From a virus (lineage: Duplodnaviria; Caudoviricetes): a DNA stretch of 64,000 bases. The stretch spans positions 224,001-288,000 of the IMG/VR virus record IMGVR_UViG_3300037501_000111. One strand, written 5' to 3'. The translations under genes and the position numbers were made by a program. Each line of letters opens with the position of its first letter. Position 1 is the first letter of the stretch. Shown in pieces: positions 9,297 to 53,699 of this stretch. The notes beneath the pieces were generated by a model that did no database searches, had not been told where the DNA came from, and saw only the letters and a list, made by a program, of their open reading frames with translations.

Positions 9297-10679
9297 TCAC
9301 GAGTACACTATAGTTATTCGAGCATTGTTACATATTACTCTATCTGTCACAGATCCGCTTGTTTTCCAAATTTGAACTTCATATCTGGTAGGAGCATCGC
9401 TTCTAATATTTCCTGGACTAGTACCCACAACTAAAGGTATGGAAGTGTATTCTGTGGTAACAGTGTTATTAAATTGGAATAGTGTATTTGTAACAGCTAC
9501 ATTGTGTGTAGTATCAAATAACCTACAATATCCATCTACACCAACCGAAGAAACTTCTAGACTGGCTTTAAATGTCATACTTCTAGCTCTTCCACTATTA
9601 TCTGTTAGTAGTGCCGGATACAGTGTAATATCCACTTCTCTACCACCTGTTCCTGCTGGTGTAGAAAATCCATTCATTTCTGTGCCAGACACAAAATTAA
9701 TATCAGAAGGCATAGCTAAAGCTAGAAGCGTAGTAATTAAAACAGGCGGACTATAAACAATATTAATTCTAGCATTTCTACAGATAACTTGATCATTAGC
9801 CCCGCCACCAGTAATAAAAATTTGAACTTCATACTGAGCAGTCATATCTGTTCTCATCAATCCAGGAGTTACTCCTGAATTAATATTGGCAGACAGCTCT
9901 ACTGAAGTTAAACTGCTGGTAGATAATGTACTACTTGTAATAACAACATTGTTTGTAACATCTTTGATTCTTACGAAACCCGTGGCTGCCGCATTAGTTA
10001 CTTCCAGATCAGCTTTAAAGGTCATAGTTCTAGTACGACCATCTAGAGTGGTAGATGGAAATGGTGACATATCTACAGCACGAGCGCCTACTCTGAATGG
10101 AGAAGAAGAGTTAGTATATCCGTCTCCTCCTACAAAAACAATATCAACCGGCAAAAGAATAACGGTTGGTAGAATATTTAAAGTTACACTTTGAGTAACT
10201 GGTTTCCAAATATAACCGTCCCAAGTAAGTACTTGATTGGATGTTGGGGCTTGAGTAGAAACTGGACGACCCTGTAATCCGGTAACATATGGAAGTGTGT
10301 GTGTATTTCCTAAATCTTGTGCTAATTGAACTGAATTAGTAGGTTGCCAAACAATACCATTCCATCCTATAACTTGATTAGGTAATGGTGCGGCACTGGA
10401 AAGTGGACGATCCTGTAAACCGATAACTAATGGATGAGATGGTGTGCCACCTAAATCTCCAGCTATTGTTACAACTTGCTGAGTAATTAAATTCTCAATA
10501 CGGTCCATTCTAGATCTGACAGTAGCAAATGTGCCGCTCGGTTTAGCTCCTAATTCATTTTCAATTGCAATAATGGCATCTCTTAGTCGATTGACCGTAT
10601 CTCCACCAATTGGGGATTGGTTATCCTCTACAAGAGGCAAAGTAACATTATTGTCTATCTGTGCTGGATAAGTAGTCAT
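9297..10679 (-). CDS. Putative fibre/virion protein
   Basis: N-terminal YPxxxDNNxTLP...LRDAIIAIENELGxxPSG domain shared with 10785..13733; two DLGxTxxxPxVxGLQxRP...NQVxxWxGxxWxP repeats; duplicated C-terminal domain. Confidence 0.65.
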   Translation of the reverse strand: MTTYPAQIDNNVTLPLVEDNQSPIGGDTVNRLRDAIIAIENELGAKPSGTFATVRSRMDRIENLITQQVVTIAGDLGGTPSHPLVIGLQDRPLSSAAPLPNQVIGWNGIVWQPTNSVQLAQDLGNTHTLPYVTGLQGRPVSTQAPTSNQVLTWDGYIWKPVTQSVTLNILPTVILLPVDIVFVGGDGYTNSSSPFRVGARAVDMSPFPSTTLDGRTRTMTFKADLEVTNAAATGFVRIKDVTNNVVITSSTLSTSSLTSVELSANINSGVTPGLMRTDMTAQYEVQIFITGGGANDQVICRNARINIVYSPPVLITTLLALAMPSDINFVSGTEMNGFSTPAGTGGREVDITLYPALLTDNSGRARSMTFKASLEVSSVGVDGYCRLFDTTHNVAVTNTLFQFNNTVTTEYTSIPLVVGTSPGNIRSDAPTRYEVQIWKTSGSVTDRVICNNARITIVYS

Positions 10680-31863: not shown

Positions 31864-31956
31864 GATCAAAACAGAAGTTGATCTCGACAATTGAAAGGGG
31901 GATCTATAGGGGGATCAGGATCTTTTTAGATCAAACCCTCAACCTAAAAATCGATC
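31864..31956. other. GATC-dense non-coding element containing GATCTCGACAA-N5-AGGGGGATCTA-TAGGGGG
   Basis: Seven GATC sites (31864, 31880, 31901, 31913, 31919, 31929, 31953); second copy of the core at 51013-51047. Confidence 0.7.
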
Positions 31957-35101: not shown

Positions 35102-35719
35102 GTGAATAAGTTTGATACTATCGCTGGTTTTACAAAATGTCGTGAGACATGTGTATTTTGTAATACCACATTGCGCATTATATTAACTAATTATGTTGGA
35201 GTTAGTGGACAAGGCATTCCTATTATTAATGCTCCTCTTAAAAATGATAGGTTTGAATTCAAAATCAAACATACAACTCCATCATTTGAGGTTAAGTCAG
35301 ACGTATTCATCTCCACTACAAATAACGCTTTAATATTTGAGAATTTCACCAACGGTGAAATGCCGGCCATTGATGATAATTTAGCCAAACAAGTATTTGA
35401 AGATTATGGGCCACATTTTGAATTGTACTGCCCCAGTAAAAAATGTGGATTAGGGTATTACATAGCTAGCTGGCCAATCAAATTAAAGAAAGTTCATCCT
35501 GTCGTAGGAATGTGGTACATTGAGCCATTTGCCGTGTTTACTGAAAATGTTAAAGTTGGCAATTATGTAGTTGCTAACAATTGGGAATCTAAACTAAGCA
35601 ATATCTATTCTAGAAAGAATATCGACGCTAAGCCTATTGTGGTTCCAATGGTAGATTTTTCTACTATGAATAAAGAGAAACTAATAACTCGAATAAAAAC
35701 TTTGGTGACATTCTCATGA
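35102..35719 (+). CDS. Zn-ribbon array member 3, ends ...[10 protein letters not shown]
   Basis: CVFC and CPSKKC; GTG start. Confidence 0.8.
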
Positions 35720-36810
35720 ATACTATACACATACAGGTATTGCAATCCTGTCAGGTAAGTCTAAAATCTTTAGAAAAGATGACTTCCTTACCTCAAATGC
35801 GTTTAAGATTAGCTGAGATAGATGAGAAATCTAGTGATCCGTCTTTTTGGAATAATCCAAGATCCGCTGCTATCTTAATGAAAGAACGTAAAAAATTGGA
35901 TGACTTCATTACATTTTTCACACGATCAAAAGACGATTTAGAAATATATAATGAATTCGTCAAGGCTGGAGAGCTAAGTGATGCAGATTTTGCACAGCTT
36001 TTCACTCTAAATTCTAAACTACAGTCTACCGTGTTTGAGCAGATGATGAAAGATCCGGTAGATGATACTCCAGCTATCATTTCTATTAATGCTGGTGCGG
36101 GTGGACTGGAGGCAGCTAATTGGGTTACTATGTTACTTCGTATGTATACTCGATATGCAGATAGCCAAGGCTTCAAGGTCGAGATCCTAGATGAAAAGCC
36201 TTCTGAAGAGCATAGTGCTATTTGTACTGATTCTGTTTCTATTAGAGTAGATGGCCCATATGCATTTGGTTTCTTTAAATCAGAATCTGGAGTTCATCGT
36301 CTCATCCGCAACTCACCATTCAATGCCGCTGATGCTAGACAAACTTCATTTGCTGGTGTTCAGGTCACACCTGATATTGAAGATACTATTGATATTAAAA
36401 TAGAGGAAAAAGATATAGAGATTACTACTATGCGTAATTCTGGTCCAGGTGGACAAAATGTTAACAAAGTAGAATCTGCTGTCCGTCTCAAACATCTTCC
36501 AACTGGTATAGTTATTAATTCTCGTTCAGAGCGTAGTCAATTAGATAATCGTAGATTTGCCATGAAGATGTTGAAAGCAAAACTTTACGAATTAGAAATG
36601 AAAAAGAAGCAAGCCGAACAAGATAAACGTGTGGATGCTACGGCTGATGTATCCTTCGGTAATCAAATCAGAACTTATACTTTAATGCCCTATAAATTAG
36701 TTAAGGATGAACGTACCGGATTTCAAGTTAGAGACGCCGATGCCGTTCTTGATGGTGACATTCAAGGATTTATGATTGCTTATCTTCAGGAATATGATAA
36801 AATCGCATAA
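35716..36810 (+). CDS. prfB: Peptide chain release factor 2
   Basis: [20 protein letters not shown] (SPF tripeptide = RF2), GPGGQNVNK (GGQ), [15 protein letters not shown]; single open frame. Confidence 0.95.
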
Positions 36811-45483: not shown

Positions 45484-45783
45484 GGCACAACAGATGCCTT
45501 ATTAGCCCATGAATATTAGTAGTCTCAAATTATATAGTTTATAATGCGATAAGATGCTTTAAGTATTGGGTGAATTATATTAATTTGAATATGGGGTGCC
45601 TATATCCTGTATTGGGGCTAATGGGACGAGAATAGTTATGCAGATCATATCGTGGTCACTATAAATACACCGTCTGAGTGAAGTTTAGACCTTAAGATAA
45701 CGTATAGCCCCCCTTGGGGAGGCGACCTACCACCTCATGCGCACTCCGCCCACACTTTTCCAGCCAGCCTGAAATGAGGGTTT

Positions 45784-45894
45784 TGGCCTGGTTCTTGCAA
45801 TTCAGTTTTGGCATTCTGTTTGCATTTTGCTAATAGCTATACCAACTATATGTAGTATTATTGAATACTAATCATACATGGCATACGTTTTGCA
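45784..45894 (+). promoter_or_regulatory. Three tandem sigma54 (-24/-12) consensus motifs
   Basis: TGGCCTGGTTCTTGCA (45784), TGGCATTCTGTTTGCA (45809), TGGCATACGTTTTGCA (45879); each is GG-N10-GC. Confidence 0.6.
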
Positions 45895-45983
45895 AAAATC
45901 AATGAATATGCCAAGGGCGCAGCGCACTTACCCTGTTGGCTCCCATTCACGGGCTGCACTTACCCAGGATTGGAGGTTGAACG

Positions 45984-46448: not shown

Positions 46449-46460
46449 CATGTAGGTTGA

Positions 46461-46495
46461 AAGGGGAGGGTGGCGCTAGCCACCCTCCCCTTCTT
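46461..46495 (+). terminator. Terminator-like hairpin
   Basis: Perfect 14 bp stem AAGGGGAGGGTGGC-GCTA-GCCACCCTCCCCTT. Confidence 0.7.
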
Positions 46496-49698: not shown

Positions 49699-50031
49699 AA
49701 CAAGGTGGCCCTTCGGGGCCATCTCTGTTGAGCAAGGTGGCATCGCTATTACAGGGTACAATGGGCGTGCCAGCGAGTTCAAATGGTCGAAAACTCACCG
49801 TCGCCACGTGCCCAAGTCGGAACCTCGGAAACGGGGAAGGCGTCAACGCGAGCACAGTGCTCGCTCCCATTCACGGGGCCGAGGAATTCAACCCCGATCT
49901 AATTGGTCTCCTATCTGGTGGAGCCCATGAATCCGGCTCATTTTTTACCCCGACCGCACTTACCGCAGCGCCAAAACACCGCAGCAGTAGGGCGTTTGCA
50001 TACATGTAGCATATATGTAGGGAAAGGTAGT

Positions 50032-50047
50032 TGGCATGGTTATGGCA
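50032..50047 (+). promoter_or_regulatory. Sigma54-like promoter motif
   Basis: TGGCATGGTTATGGCA followed by GGGTGCA; upstream ATGTAGGGAAA is shared with the 47351 copy. Confidence 0.5.
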
Positions 50048-50278: not shown

Positions 50279-50476
50279 ATGGGCAAGATTCTGGTCATCA
50301 TTCTGGCAACGTGTGCGTGTCTCTGGCTGGCCTTCATGCTGGTCGGAACGCGACTGACTAACACGGCCTTCAACGTGCCTGGTACCGAACACACACCCGC
50401 CTTCGGTGTCACCTGGACCATCATCCTGGGCGCGGGGGTGGGGTACGTCATCTATCGCATCGTCAAGGGCAAGTAA
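50279..50476 (+). CDS. Small two-TM membrane protein
   Basis: MGKILVIILATCACLWLAFMLVG...TIILGAGVGYVIYRIVKGK. Confidence 0.7.
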   Translation: MGKILVIILATCACLWLAFMLVGTRLTNTAFNVPGTEHTPAFGVTWTIILGAGVGYVIYRIVKGK

Positions 50477-50489
50477 GAACTAACAAGTT

Positions 50490-50950
50490 TGGGAGCCGAA
50501 AGGTGGACCGTCCACTCTACCAGCTAACGAGAGGCGCAATGCTGATGGGCCATGAGGTATTGGCTTACTGCTGGCGGCTCCCATTCATTGCTACAAATTC
50601 CCAAGGTGGGGCGGTTGAGGAAAGCTGACTCCCCGCCCCAAACAATCCTATAAATTATACTGGGAAGTTCTCGTCAGCATACCTGTCAAAAGCCGAAGGT
50701 GTACTGCTAGCCAGGTGACATGACTCACCTGCGATCTTTTCGACCAAAGGGTAGGAACAATACAGGCTAGGTAGCTACTTCGGTAGTCCAACTGTATGCC
50801 CCAAGGTATAGGCTGATCTCTACCGATTGAGCGGGGTAGGAGACAGGGCAGGTATGCTGACGAGAGCTGGCTAGTCCAGCATAGCTGGAATCCTTTCAGG
50901 CTAGTCCAGCATAGCTGGAATCCTTTCAGGCTAGTCCAGCTGTACCACCA
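50490..50950 (+). ncRNA. Candidate structured non-coding RNA(s)
   Basis: No credible ORF; multiple helices, including an 18 bp long-range pair 50670-50687 / 50847-50864 and a UUCG hairpin. Strand is inferred from the neighbouring genes. Confidence 0.5.
50869..50940 (+). repeat. 30 nt tandem repeat, 2.4 copies
   Basis: GGCTAGTCCAGCATAGCTGGAATCCTTTCA x2 plus GGCTAGTCCAGC; no spacers. Confidence 0.95.
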
Positions 50951-51012
50951 TCCTAGAGATACCTGCGAGGCCTCTATGGAATCCAGACCGAATTACTTAC
51001 AATTCCGAACTG

Positions 51013-51047
51013 GATCTCGACAACACGTAGGGGGATCTAATAGGGGG
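51013..51047. repeat. Second copy of the GATCTCGACAA-N5-AGGGGGATCTA-(A)TAGGGGG element
   Basis: Matches 31880-31913. Confidence 0.85.
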
Positions 51048-51069
51048 TATAGCAGATATACTCCGGAAG

Positions 51070-51276
51070 TTGGGGGATGTGGTAAGCCTGGGCTGGGATG
51101 ACGGCTATCACACGGTCACGGTCTCTCAGGTTCACAAGGACGGGACGGTGGATGTCTTCCGTCCCTACACGGCCACGGCTGACTTTTCATGTGCAGGGCG
51201 AGAGGAGGGATCTTCCTCAGTCATCTGCTACGTGGGAATCGAAGAGGTCAAGGGAACACCGGGTCATGAAGTGTAA
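51070..51276 (+). CDS. Short hypothetical ORF or gene fragment
   Basis: TTG start; VFRPYTATADFS...VICYVGIE; may be N-terminally truncated. Confidence 0.4.
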   Translation: MGDVVSLGWDDGYHTVTVSQVHKDGTVDVFRPYTATADFSCAGREEGSSSVICYVGIEEVKGTPGHEV

Positions 51277-52239: not shown

Positions 52240-52701
52240 ATGACGAAGCGAGCATACGACAAGGTTCCTGTCTATAGCCTGCAAGTTGTCAAGGAGCGTA
52301 CTCTCAAGTACCCTGCTGACAAGGTGCCTCACCACATGGCAGCCGCAGCGGTCTTTCAAGCCTACCTGGAAGACAAGGCTTGTGAGCACTTGGCAATCCT
52401 TCTGTTGGATGGGCAATCCAAGATGATTGGAATTGCCACCATCACCATCGGTGGGCTGGATCGCCTGTCTTGCTCAGTCCGAAGTGTCTTTGAGCACGTC
52501 ATTGGTGGGCGGGCTCATGGCTTCATCCTGGGACATAACCATCCCAGCGGTAATGTCCAACCTTCTCCTGAGGATCTGGTTTTCACTCAGAGGGTGATGG
52601 AGGCTAGCGAAATCATTGGGGTTCCCATGCTGGACCACATCATCATCTCGTCTAGCACCAATCGGGACTCTTTGTCTTTCTTGGACAAGGGTTTGTTGTA
52701 A
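52240..52701 (+). CDS. RadC-like JAB domain protein
   Basis: EHLAILLLD, SVRSVF, HNHPSGNVQPSPED, MLDHIII. Confidence 0.9.
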   Translation: MTKRAYDKVPVYSLQVVKERTLKYPADKVPHHMAAAAVFQAYLEDKACEHLAILLLDGQSKMIGIATITIGGLDRLSCSVRSVFEHVIGGRAHGFILGHNHPSGNVQPSPEDLVFTQRVMEASEIIGVPMLDHIIISSSTNRDSLSFLDKGLL

Positions 52702-53089: not shown

Positions 53090-53430
53090 ATGTCAGAGGA
53101 TTCAAACCGGGGCCAAAAGTTAGAAGCCCATAGAAAAGCAGCTAGAGAATGGGCAAAGCGAGACTACGAGAAAAACAGGAGATGCTAGAGTTGTCATGCG
53201 AAAGAAATGGCGACATGAGCACCCTGAATATGTCTTGCTAAGAAACGCCAAGAGGCGTGCAAAAGAAAAAGGGTTAGAGTTTACCCTAACGGCAGAAGAT
53301 ATCCACATACCTGAAGTTTGTCCTTTACTCGGCATTTTTATTCACCGTAATCTGAATGGCGATAAAGCAACGCCTAACAGTCCGACGTTGGATAGGATTG
53401 ATTCAAGTAAAGGTTATACGAAGGATGGAG
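53090..53430 (+). pseudogene. Truncated, frameshifted HNH-like endonuclease
   Basis: AKRRAKEKGLEFTLT...CPLLG...SPTLDRIDSSKGYTKD; the usual NV...N C-terminus is missing and the frame runs into the next gene. Confidence 0.65.
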
Positions 53431-53438
53431 AGAGAACG

Positions 53439-53699
53439 ATGATCGCAATGCAGTCCGGTATGAAAGGTACGCTGACCGTCCAAGGAATCCCTTGGATGTA
53501 CCTCAGCTACAACTCCAAGGTGGGCTTTGGTTTTGGCCGACATGCCATCATCTTTGACCTTCTGGCCAATTGCTACGTCATCAAAGAAAACGGAGAGACC
53601 GTTTTCGGATCAGGTTCCGTCTCAGAATGTTTGGAGCAAGCGGCTCCGATCGTCTGGGACTACTACGCCAACCAATTCACACCGTCCTGGGAAAAATGA
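53439..53699 (+). CDS. Hypothetical protein
   Basis: GGAG RBS before MIAMQSG. Confidence 0.6.
   Translation: MIAMQSGMKGTLTVQGIPWMYLSYNSKVGFGFGRHAIIFDLLANCYVIKENGETVFGSGSVSECLEQAAPIVWDYYANQFTPSWEK

Follow-up and report, generated by a model that had tools for sequence, protein, structure and literature searches.

A conserved structured RNA with a likely pseudoknot in the GC-rich early block of uncultivated phages

The stretch of phage DNA analysed here (64,000 nt, positions 224,001 to 288,000 of IMG/VR record IMGVR_UViG_3300037501_000111; hereafter the window) carries on its + strand what is very probably a genuine conserved structured RNA. Six further distinct versions were found in related uncultivated phage contigs, which gives seven distinct sequences: four large forms of 201–229 nt (the window, L005, L156 and L159) and three mini forms of 145–149 nt in which one branch is missing (L147, L148 and L154). 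The core fold, 145–229 nt in length, consists of a clamp helix of about 20 bp (P1) formed from both ends, a multi-helix junction (P2, P3, P5 and P6) and a likely pseudoknot. The fuller reading, in which this maintained non-coding + strand RNA of the GC-rich early block is also a discrete early transcript that acts in trans by binding a protein, stands in our estimation at somewhat less than an even chance.

Fold of the RNA and its covariation

The initial annotation had drawn a large non-coding RNA domain closed by an 18-bp helix with one G-U pair (50670–50687 with 50847–50864). This helix is real and grows by three pairs to 21 bp, and every complementary segment named alongside it is present where it was placed. 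In the extended helix P1 (5' strand 50667–50687, 3' strand 50847–50867, + strand) 13 of the 21 pairs have changed on both sides among the seven sequences, with 95.9% of the cells paired, and in L148 a 2-bp insertion is compensated. P1 encloses a multi-helix domain of about 200 nt on the + strand, and it was the sole long inverted repeat returned by a repeat finder in the surrounding 1.5 kb. The 271-nt stretch folded as the + strand gave −114.7 kcal/mol against −85.2 ± 5.5 kcal/mol for dinucleotide shuffles (z = −5.4, with none of 200 shuffles as good), whereas the fold of the − strand was weaker (z = −3.9). The region had been described as free of open reading frames, and this holds for the whole family, all three + strand frames being interrupted in every member (1–6 stops per frame).

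Within the clamp, the conserved purine-rich junction J1/2 (50688–50703, +), made up of AAAAGCCGAAGG and four variable nucleotides, has 10 of its 16 positions invariant in all seven sequences. Helix P2 (50709–50712 with 50811–50814, +) encloses P3 and P5; 100% of its cells are paired, and its support is weak because the one change observed is one-sided. The GGCU at 50811–50814 has two possible AGCC partners, the one in J1/2 being an alternative with one compensatory change (in L148). Both P3 and P6 had been drawn as hairpins in the initial annotation, and both were borne out by compensatory changes in the relatives. In P3 (50713–50730, +) three of the six pairs are compensatory, and the 6-nt loop CAUGAC (50719–50724) is invariant in all seven sequences together with its two closing pairs; in L156 and L159 the stem is enlarged by an additional hairpin of 27 nt. 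P3 and the U-rich tract that follows it (window 50712–50741) are scored as an intrinsic terminator that lies within the RNA; the tract is kept in the three mini forms and lost in L005, L156 and L159. In P6 (50817–50843, +), which has a bulged A and a conserved 10-nt loop (50825–50834), 100% of the cells are paired and two pairs are compensatory, one of them with four pair types.

The P5 branch (50743–50807, +) is composed, in the large forms, of a base, a second step, a 6-bp helix and a UUCG hairpin. At the base (50743–50745 with 50805–50807, +) an A-U pair of the large forms is replaced by C-G in the mini forms, and the second step (50749–50751 with 50799–50801, +) has two compensatory pairs. 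The 6-bp helix (TACAG/CTGTA, 50760–50765 with 50792–50797, +) is present and invariant in the four large forms; since it never varies, covariation neither supports nor refutes it. The UUCG hairpin (50774–50787, +), also drawn initially, has one compensatory pair and is irregular in L156, with 90% of its cells paired. In the mini forms only a 4-bp hairpin is found at P5, where it replaces 54–57 nt. A 5' leader of about 70 nt (50598–50666, +), which was aligned with L005 and L159, is present in three of the four large forms (the window and these two). It comprises helix P0 (50598–50603 with 50661–50666, +), four pairs of which are kept in L159 through two double changes, and a hairpin (50607–50614 with 50633–50640, +). 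The stem of this hairpin, which the initial annotation had placed upstream of the domain, is kept in the two relatives with a compensatory change of G-C to A-U; the GAGGAAAG that had been pointed out in its loop is not conserved.

Unpaired positions that are invariant in all members number 32 and lie in J1/2, the P3 loop CAUGAC, the 5' half of the P6 loop, J6/1 and a few other places; with seven sequences from one phage clade, these positions may partly reflect shared recent ancestry. Variable helix tips together with invariant loops and junctions are the pattern of a core that would be functional and of tips that would be free to change.

A search of the alignment for further conserved complementarity gave a 5-bp pseudoknot, in which 50704–50708 (CUGCY, +), just 5' of P2, pairs with 50830–50834 (RGCGG), the 3' half of the P6 loop, and connects the 5' junction with the loop of the last hairpin. 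Its single variable pair matches in all seven sequences, as U-A in the window, L156 and L148 and as C-G in L005, L159, L147 and L154. The closest pairs of the alignment differ in this state (window and L005 at 89% identity, window and L156 at 86%), and the mini forms differ too, which means that at least three independent double switches are needed. Because one variable pair out of a scan of many column pairs carries this result, we regard the pseudoknot as likely, not proven.

The helices were assessed on alignment A3 (MAFFT, unfitted), which holds the seven distinct sequences at 69–89% identity over shared columns; the structure was written from the window sequence alone and then counted on this alignment. 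Standard pairs occupied 97.1–97.4% of the cells, and 22–23 of 56–61 pairs had changed on both sides. None of 500 shuffles reached any of the five measures. In slid controls, in which the 3' partners were moved by 1–3 columns, pairing was 32–40% with 0–4 double-changed pairs; a structure taken from one member favours real pairing over these controls for the cells paired, not for the double-change counts. The initial annotation had proposed a novel structured RNA of the kind found in large phages, to be judged by covariation and by comparison with Rfam. With seven homologues, this number of double-changed pairs, 97% pairing, no shuffle that equals them and no Rfam match even at permissive E-values, the proposal is supported on both counts.

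Among the paired cells, 25 were G-U and 5 were A-C. This indicates that the + strand is the folded strand, and that the element acts as a single-stranded nucleic acid and not as a duplex site. From the strand-specific G-U pairs and the start motif upstream (see below) we infer that the RNA is transcribed.

Some further pairings were rejected. RNAalifold, run on two sequences, paired J1/2 with a strand of the UUCG hairpin; the mini forms do not have this strand, and a mismatch would arise in L159. A small hairpin within J1/2 showed 89% pairing and no double change, and it clashes with the pseudoknot. For 50707–50712 with 50766–50771, covariation is seen between the window and L005, but the pairing breaks down in L156 and is impossible in the mini forms.

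Family members and genomic setting

L005, a 209,766-bp IMG/VR contig, was found by scanning IMG/VR with one helix arm, and BLAST gave 88% identity with the window over 50575–50866, from the start motif to the last base of the closing helix. The small protein gene that lies downstream of the RNA has homologues on further contigs, and these led to L147 and L148 (short) and L159 (long). L154 (short) and L156 (long) were obtained, together with four chance matches, from a scan of metagenome contigs with a 19-nt stretch spanning P6 (its loop and both strands, with one R position), which is conserved in the first four sequences. Two identical copies were also found, L160 being the same as L159, and L167, from the metagenome JGI 3300037465, the same as the window. 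Samples with these phages also include JGI 3300010938 and 3300051407 and the runs SRR33230162, SRR31980949 and SRR31712301. The covariance model R1, built from the three mini forms, scored the seven distinct members at 96–167 bits, the window reaching 141.4 bits (E 9e-29), and chance pattern matches at 6–18 bits only. We propose to define the family by P1, P2, P3 with the loop CAUGAC, P5, P6, the pseudoknot between J1/2 and the P6 loop, and an R1 score of at least about 95 bits. The window RNA has all of these and is thereby a member of the family, the early pseudoknotted RNA of CCCAT-motif phages.

With R1, no copy of the RNA was detected in a complete 480,838-bp relative that has the same start motif, in two other related IMG/VR contigs or in about 20 related loci. 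Most of the loci reached by way of homologues of the two flanking proteins were without the RNA (L149–L151, L158, L161, L162, L164–L166 and L170–L177). This indicates that the RNA is clade-restricted and accessory. Exact-pattern scans of IMG/VR with five conserved stretches gave one true relative (L005), the rest being chance matches; a pattern scan of 185,579 prokaryote genomes (one per species) gave only a chance match on a Verrucomicrobiae scaffold, and a BLAST search of GenBank phages gave no match either for the stretch or for the 7.9 kb around it. Relatives are on contigs of 210–286 kb, and the phages concerned are probably giant.

The window is divided into two compositional parts. Positions 1–45.7 kb have 35–43% G+C and encode long fibre-like proteins and a release factor, whereas from 45.9 kb onwards the G+C content is 47–62% and short ORFs are densely packed on the + strand. 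The jump is sharp (about 45700–45900), the first CCCAT-type motif follows at 45940, and the same two-part composition was seen in the loci of the 210-kb and 480-kb relatives. The release-factor gene (35716–36810, +) encodes a class-I peptide chain release factor (PCRF, E 4e-43; RF-1, E 7e-38).

The CCCAT-type motif (13–14 nt, core CTCCCATTCA) occurs 22 times in the window against 0.26 copies expected, always on the + strand and after 45.9 kb, and each copy precedes a start codon by 20–80 nt. It is probably a promoter for some polymerase. The copy directly upstream of the RNA (50576–50591, +) is a variant, the only one in the window with T for C after the core, and the same variant (T for C, then GCWAY) stands just before the RNA in L005, L159 and L154, so that four of the seven members have a variant motif of their own directly upstream. 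In L147 and L148 the RNA lies directly behind a stop codon without its own start motif, where, unless processed, it would form an element of the 3' UTR. The next start motif follows the RNA within 0–25 nt in five of the seven members. On the − strand of L156, a T-arm-like GGGTTCGACTCCC and then a degenerate look-alike of the start motif were observed at about 1735–1765, just upstream of the RNA copy.

In the window, L005 and L159 a conserved gene for a protein of 68–86 aa is located 130–650 nt downstream of the RNA. No candidate for a partner emerged when the neighbouring ORFs were scanned with Pfam and PHROGs; these are small ORFs without family that differ between the loci. Genes for a RadC-like JAB domain protein (52240–52701, +) and an HNH/endonuclease VII-like protein (53196–53699, +) are found 1.4–2.8 kb downstream of the RNA, and no link between them and the RNA was seen in other loci. 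Directly after the RNA there are 2.4 perfect copies of a 30-nt tandem repeat (50869–50940, +), each unit with a 5-bp hairpin. This repeat is specific to the window phage; its absence from L005 and all other members indicates a recent local expansion that lies outside the family.

Two other conserved non-coding elements were observed. The first is a bipartite block of about 35 bp, formed by GATCTCGACA, 5–6 variable nucleotides and two G-runs, with GATC at the first. It was found at 51013–51047 and 31880–31913 in the window, at about 1500 in L018, L020, L021 and L022, and at 9920–9960 in L159. Copies are dispersed on either strand ahead of unrelated genes, both in the two compositional halves and in two related contigs, the AT-rich parts of related contigs being among these places. 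In the window (beyond the 30-nt repeats), L005 and L159 a copy comes after the RNA. The block resembles a second class of promoter or operator. The other element occupies gene-free gaps of related early blocks and consists of a terminator hairpin followed by a conserved stretch of about 30 nt (L148, 2850–2980; L149, 3030–3185; L159, 8930–9035; L151, 171–230; L158, 6055–6110). In the window only a 30-nt piece matches it (50011–50040). This element indicates that the early blocks contain further conserved non-coding elements.

Proposed function and rival explanations

We propose that early transcription would yield the RNA as a discrete molecule, in most of the phages from a start motif of its own, and that it would act in trans during host take-over as a specific binding partner (a scaffold or a decoy) of a phage or host protein. 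P1 would only fix and protect the ends of the RNA, and the helix tips (the P3 insert, the P5 extension and the 5' leader) would be dispensable decoration. This reading is favoured because most members have their own start signal, because the ends are clamped and the conserved parts are loops and junctions, and because the RNA is accessory, like the surrounding host take-over genes. As regards discreteness, the identity with L005 begins at the start motif and stops at the last base of P1. It is from such features that we infer production as a discrete early RNA, action in trans and a protein partner.

A different and doubtful explanation is that the RNA is a cis-acting element of the transcript end, which would stop or insulate transcription, block 3' exonucleases or offer P1 as a double-strand nuclease site and would have no function as a free RNA. 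Its position agrees with this, since units always end with it and the next start motif follows directly in five of the seven members, and other block junctions carry plain hairpin terminators in the same position (e.g. 46452–46495). P1 is also about two helical turns long, the size that RNase III-type enzymes cut in T7 early RNA. Yet a plain hairpin would suffice for such a task, whereas about 50 conserved nucleotides, the pseudoknot and three further helices are kept here, and a dedicated start motif before a terminator makes little sense. A simple intrinsic terminator was rejected, given that a U-run follows P1 in L159 only and that the look-alike formed by P3 and its U-tract loses the tract in L005, L156 and L159; both observations also speak against the end element.

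The most interesting rival, which we consider unlikely, is a new self-processing ribozyme that would cut early transcripts between units and have its active site in the pseudoknotted core. A compact core of this kind with 32 invariant unpaired positions, mostly in junctions, is typical of catalytic RNAs; the helix tips vary freely and the core does not, and in L147 and L148 the RNA lies within a longer transcript, after an ORF and before the next unit. On the other hand, no Rfam ribozyme matched (at E up to 10 for the window stretch and up to 5 for three relative loci), no candidate cleavage site could be named, and a clamp helix of about 20 bp is foreign to the known small self-cleaving classes. 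Moreover, four of the seven copies have their own start motif, which would be superfluous for a mere processing signal. More broadly, we hold it only as a tentative idea that the RNA represents a catalytic or a ligand- or protein-sensing class of giant phages that works in the first minutes of infection, for example by self-cleavage or by self-association through the CAUG of the P3 loop. The CAUG is invariant and the loop is partly palindromic; self-association has recently been seen for other orphan phage-linked RNAs.

That the RNA is a 5' leader controlling the downstream gene, either riboswitch-like or protein-responsive, is very unlikely, because a separate start signal stands in between and the gene that comes next varies between loci. 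In complexity the fold is within the range of aptamers, and in the window, L005 and L159 the conserved 68–86-aa gene described above would be at hand for such control. However, a separate start motif stands between the RNA and the next gene in five of the seven loci, the dispersed promoter-like block intervenes in the window, L005 and L159, the next gene is a different one in L147, L148 and L154, and no conserved expression platform was found. The riboswitch or cis-regulatory leader was rejected for the start motif and the differing genes. A role at the DNA level (a replication origin, a recombination site or a single-strand origin folding as DNA) is most improbable in view of the pseudoknot and the G-U asymmetry: the long inverted repeat does adjoin the tandem 30-bp repeats and the GATC-rich bipartite block in the window, and the position of the element differs among relatives, but no other member has the tandem repeats, the GATC block is dispersed before unrelated genes, and nested helices with a pseudoknot and 25 G-U against 5 A-C would be unexpected for double-stranded protein-binding sites.

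Giant phages are known mostly through their proteins, and a well-supported RNA of complex fold, with a phage-specific start signal of its own in the early block, would add an RNA player to the stage of host take-over. By its size, pseudoknot and invariant junction nucleotides it is among the few orphan RNAs complex enough for a ribozyme or an RNA-protein machine, and at 145 nt the mini form lends itself to direct biochemical and structural study. The distinct conserved motif variant at the RNA gene also provides a handle for finding what reads the CCCAT-type motif.

Comparison with known RNAs

At gathering score, Rfam 15 (4227 models) matched nothing anywhere in the window, and at E up to 10 it gave no match for window 50400–51150. 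In the loci L147, L154 and L156 no match to the RNA was obtained at E up to 5, the lone hit being an unrelated sub-threshold miRNA model elsewhere in L154. The models included RNase P, tmRNA, 6S, Y RNA/YrlA, pRNA, GOLLD, ROOL, HEARO, raiA and OLE, and they covered all self-cleaving ribozyme and riboswitch classes. Neither tRNA nor tmRNA was detected by ARAGORN in the window or in six related loci, and literature searches returned no description of such an RNA.

Retron msr-msd RNAs resemble it in being about 150–200 nt long within long terminal inverted repeats; they are not known to have a counterpart to the conserved loops and pseudoknot found here. A retron was rejected, since the Pfam and PHROGs scans of the ORFs within about 3 kb showed no reverse transcriptase, only the RadC-like JAB protein, the HNH endonuclease and proteins without family.

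The closest in outline is the phi29-type pRNA (RF00044). That RNA measures 120–174 nt, is made from an early promoter, ends in a long helix and has a three-way junction and two functional hairpin loops, to which P1, the junction and the conserved P3 and P6 loops may be compared. It was nevertheless rejected: the pRNA loops are mutually complementary over 4 nt, for ring formation, whereas by eye no complementarity exists between the P3 loop (CAUGAC) and the P6 loop, the latter pairing within the molecule with J1/2, and there was no Rfam match. In addition, the phages that carry pRNA are small podoviruses and those studied here appear giant, and the RNA is absent from the complete relative, as an essential packaging part like pRNA would not be.

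GOLLD and ROOL are about 600–800 nt long, so that the present RNA, which gave no Rfam hit, is much smaller than either. Together with HEARO and the more than 10,000 candidate viral structured RNAs of Fremin et al. 2023 (PMC10690425), they are likewise phage-borne, covariation-supported and complex in fold, with their function open. Since only one member (L005) was found in IMG/VR, a collection of the type on which that study drew, the family was probably out of reach of that comparative screen. Phage RNA mimics, such as RNA anti-CRISPRs and pseudo-ToxI, are analogous, although here there is neither repeat mimicry nor a relation in sequence or family.

In concept, the viral decoy RNAs come closest. 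Adenovirus VA RNA I is a small, abundant decoy that titrates a host protein, and its ends form a stem of about 20 bp under a pseudoknotted core. The terminal stem and folded core of the RNA described here are alike, the analogy being a functional one only. On its sequences and predicted fold, the RNA is classed as a putative new family within a known kind, the orphan structured phage RNAs.
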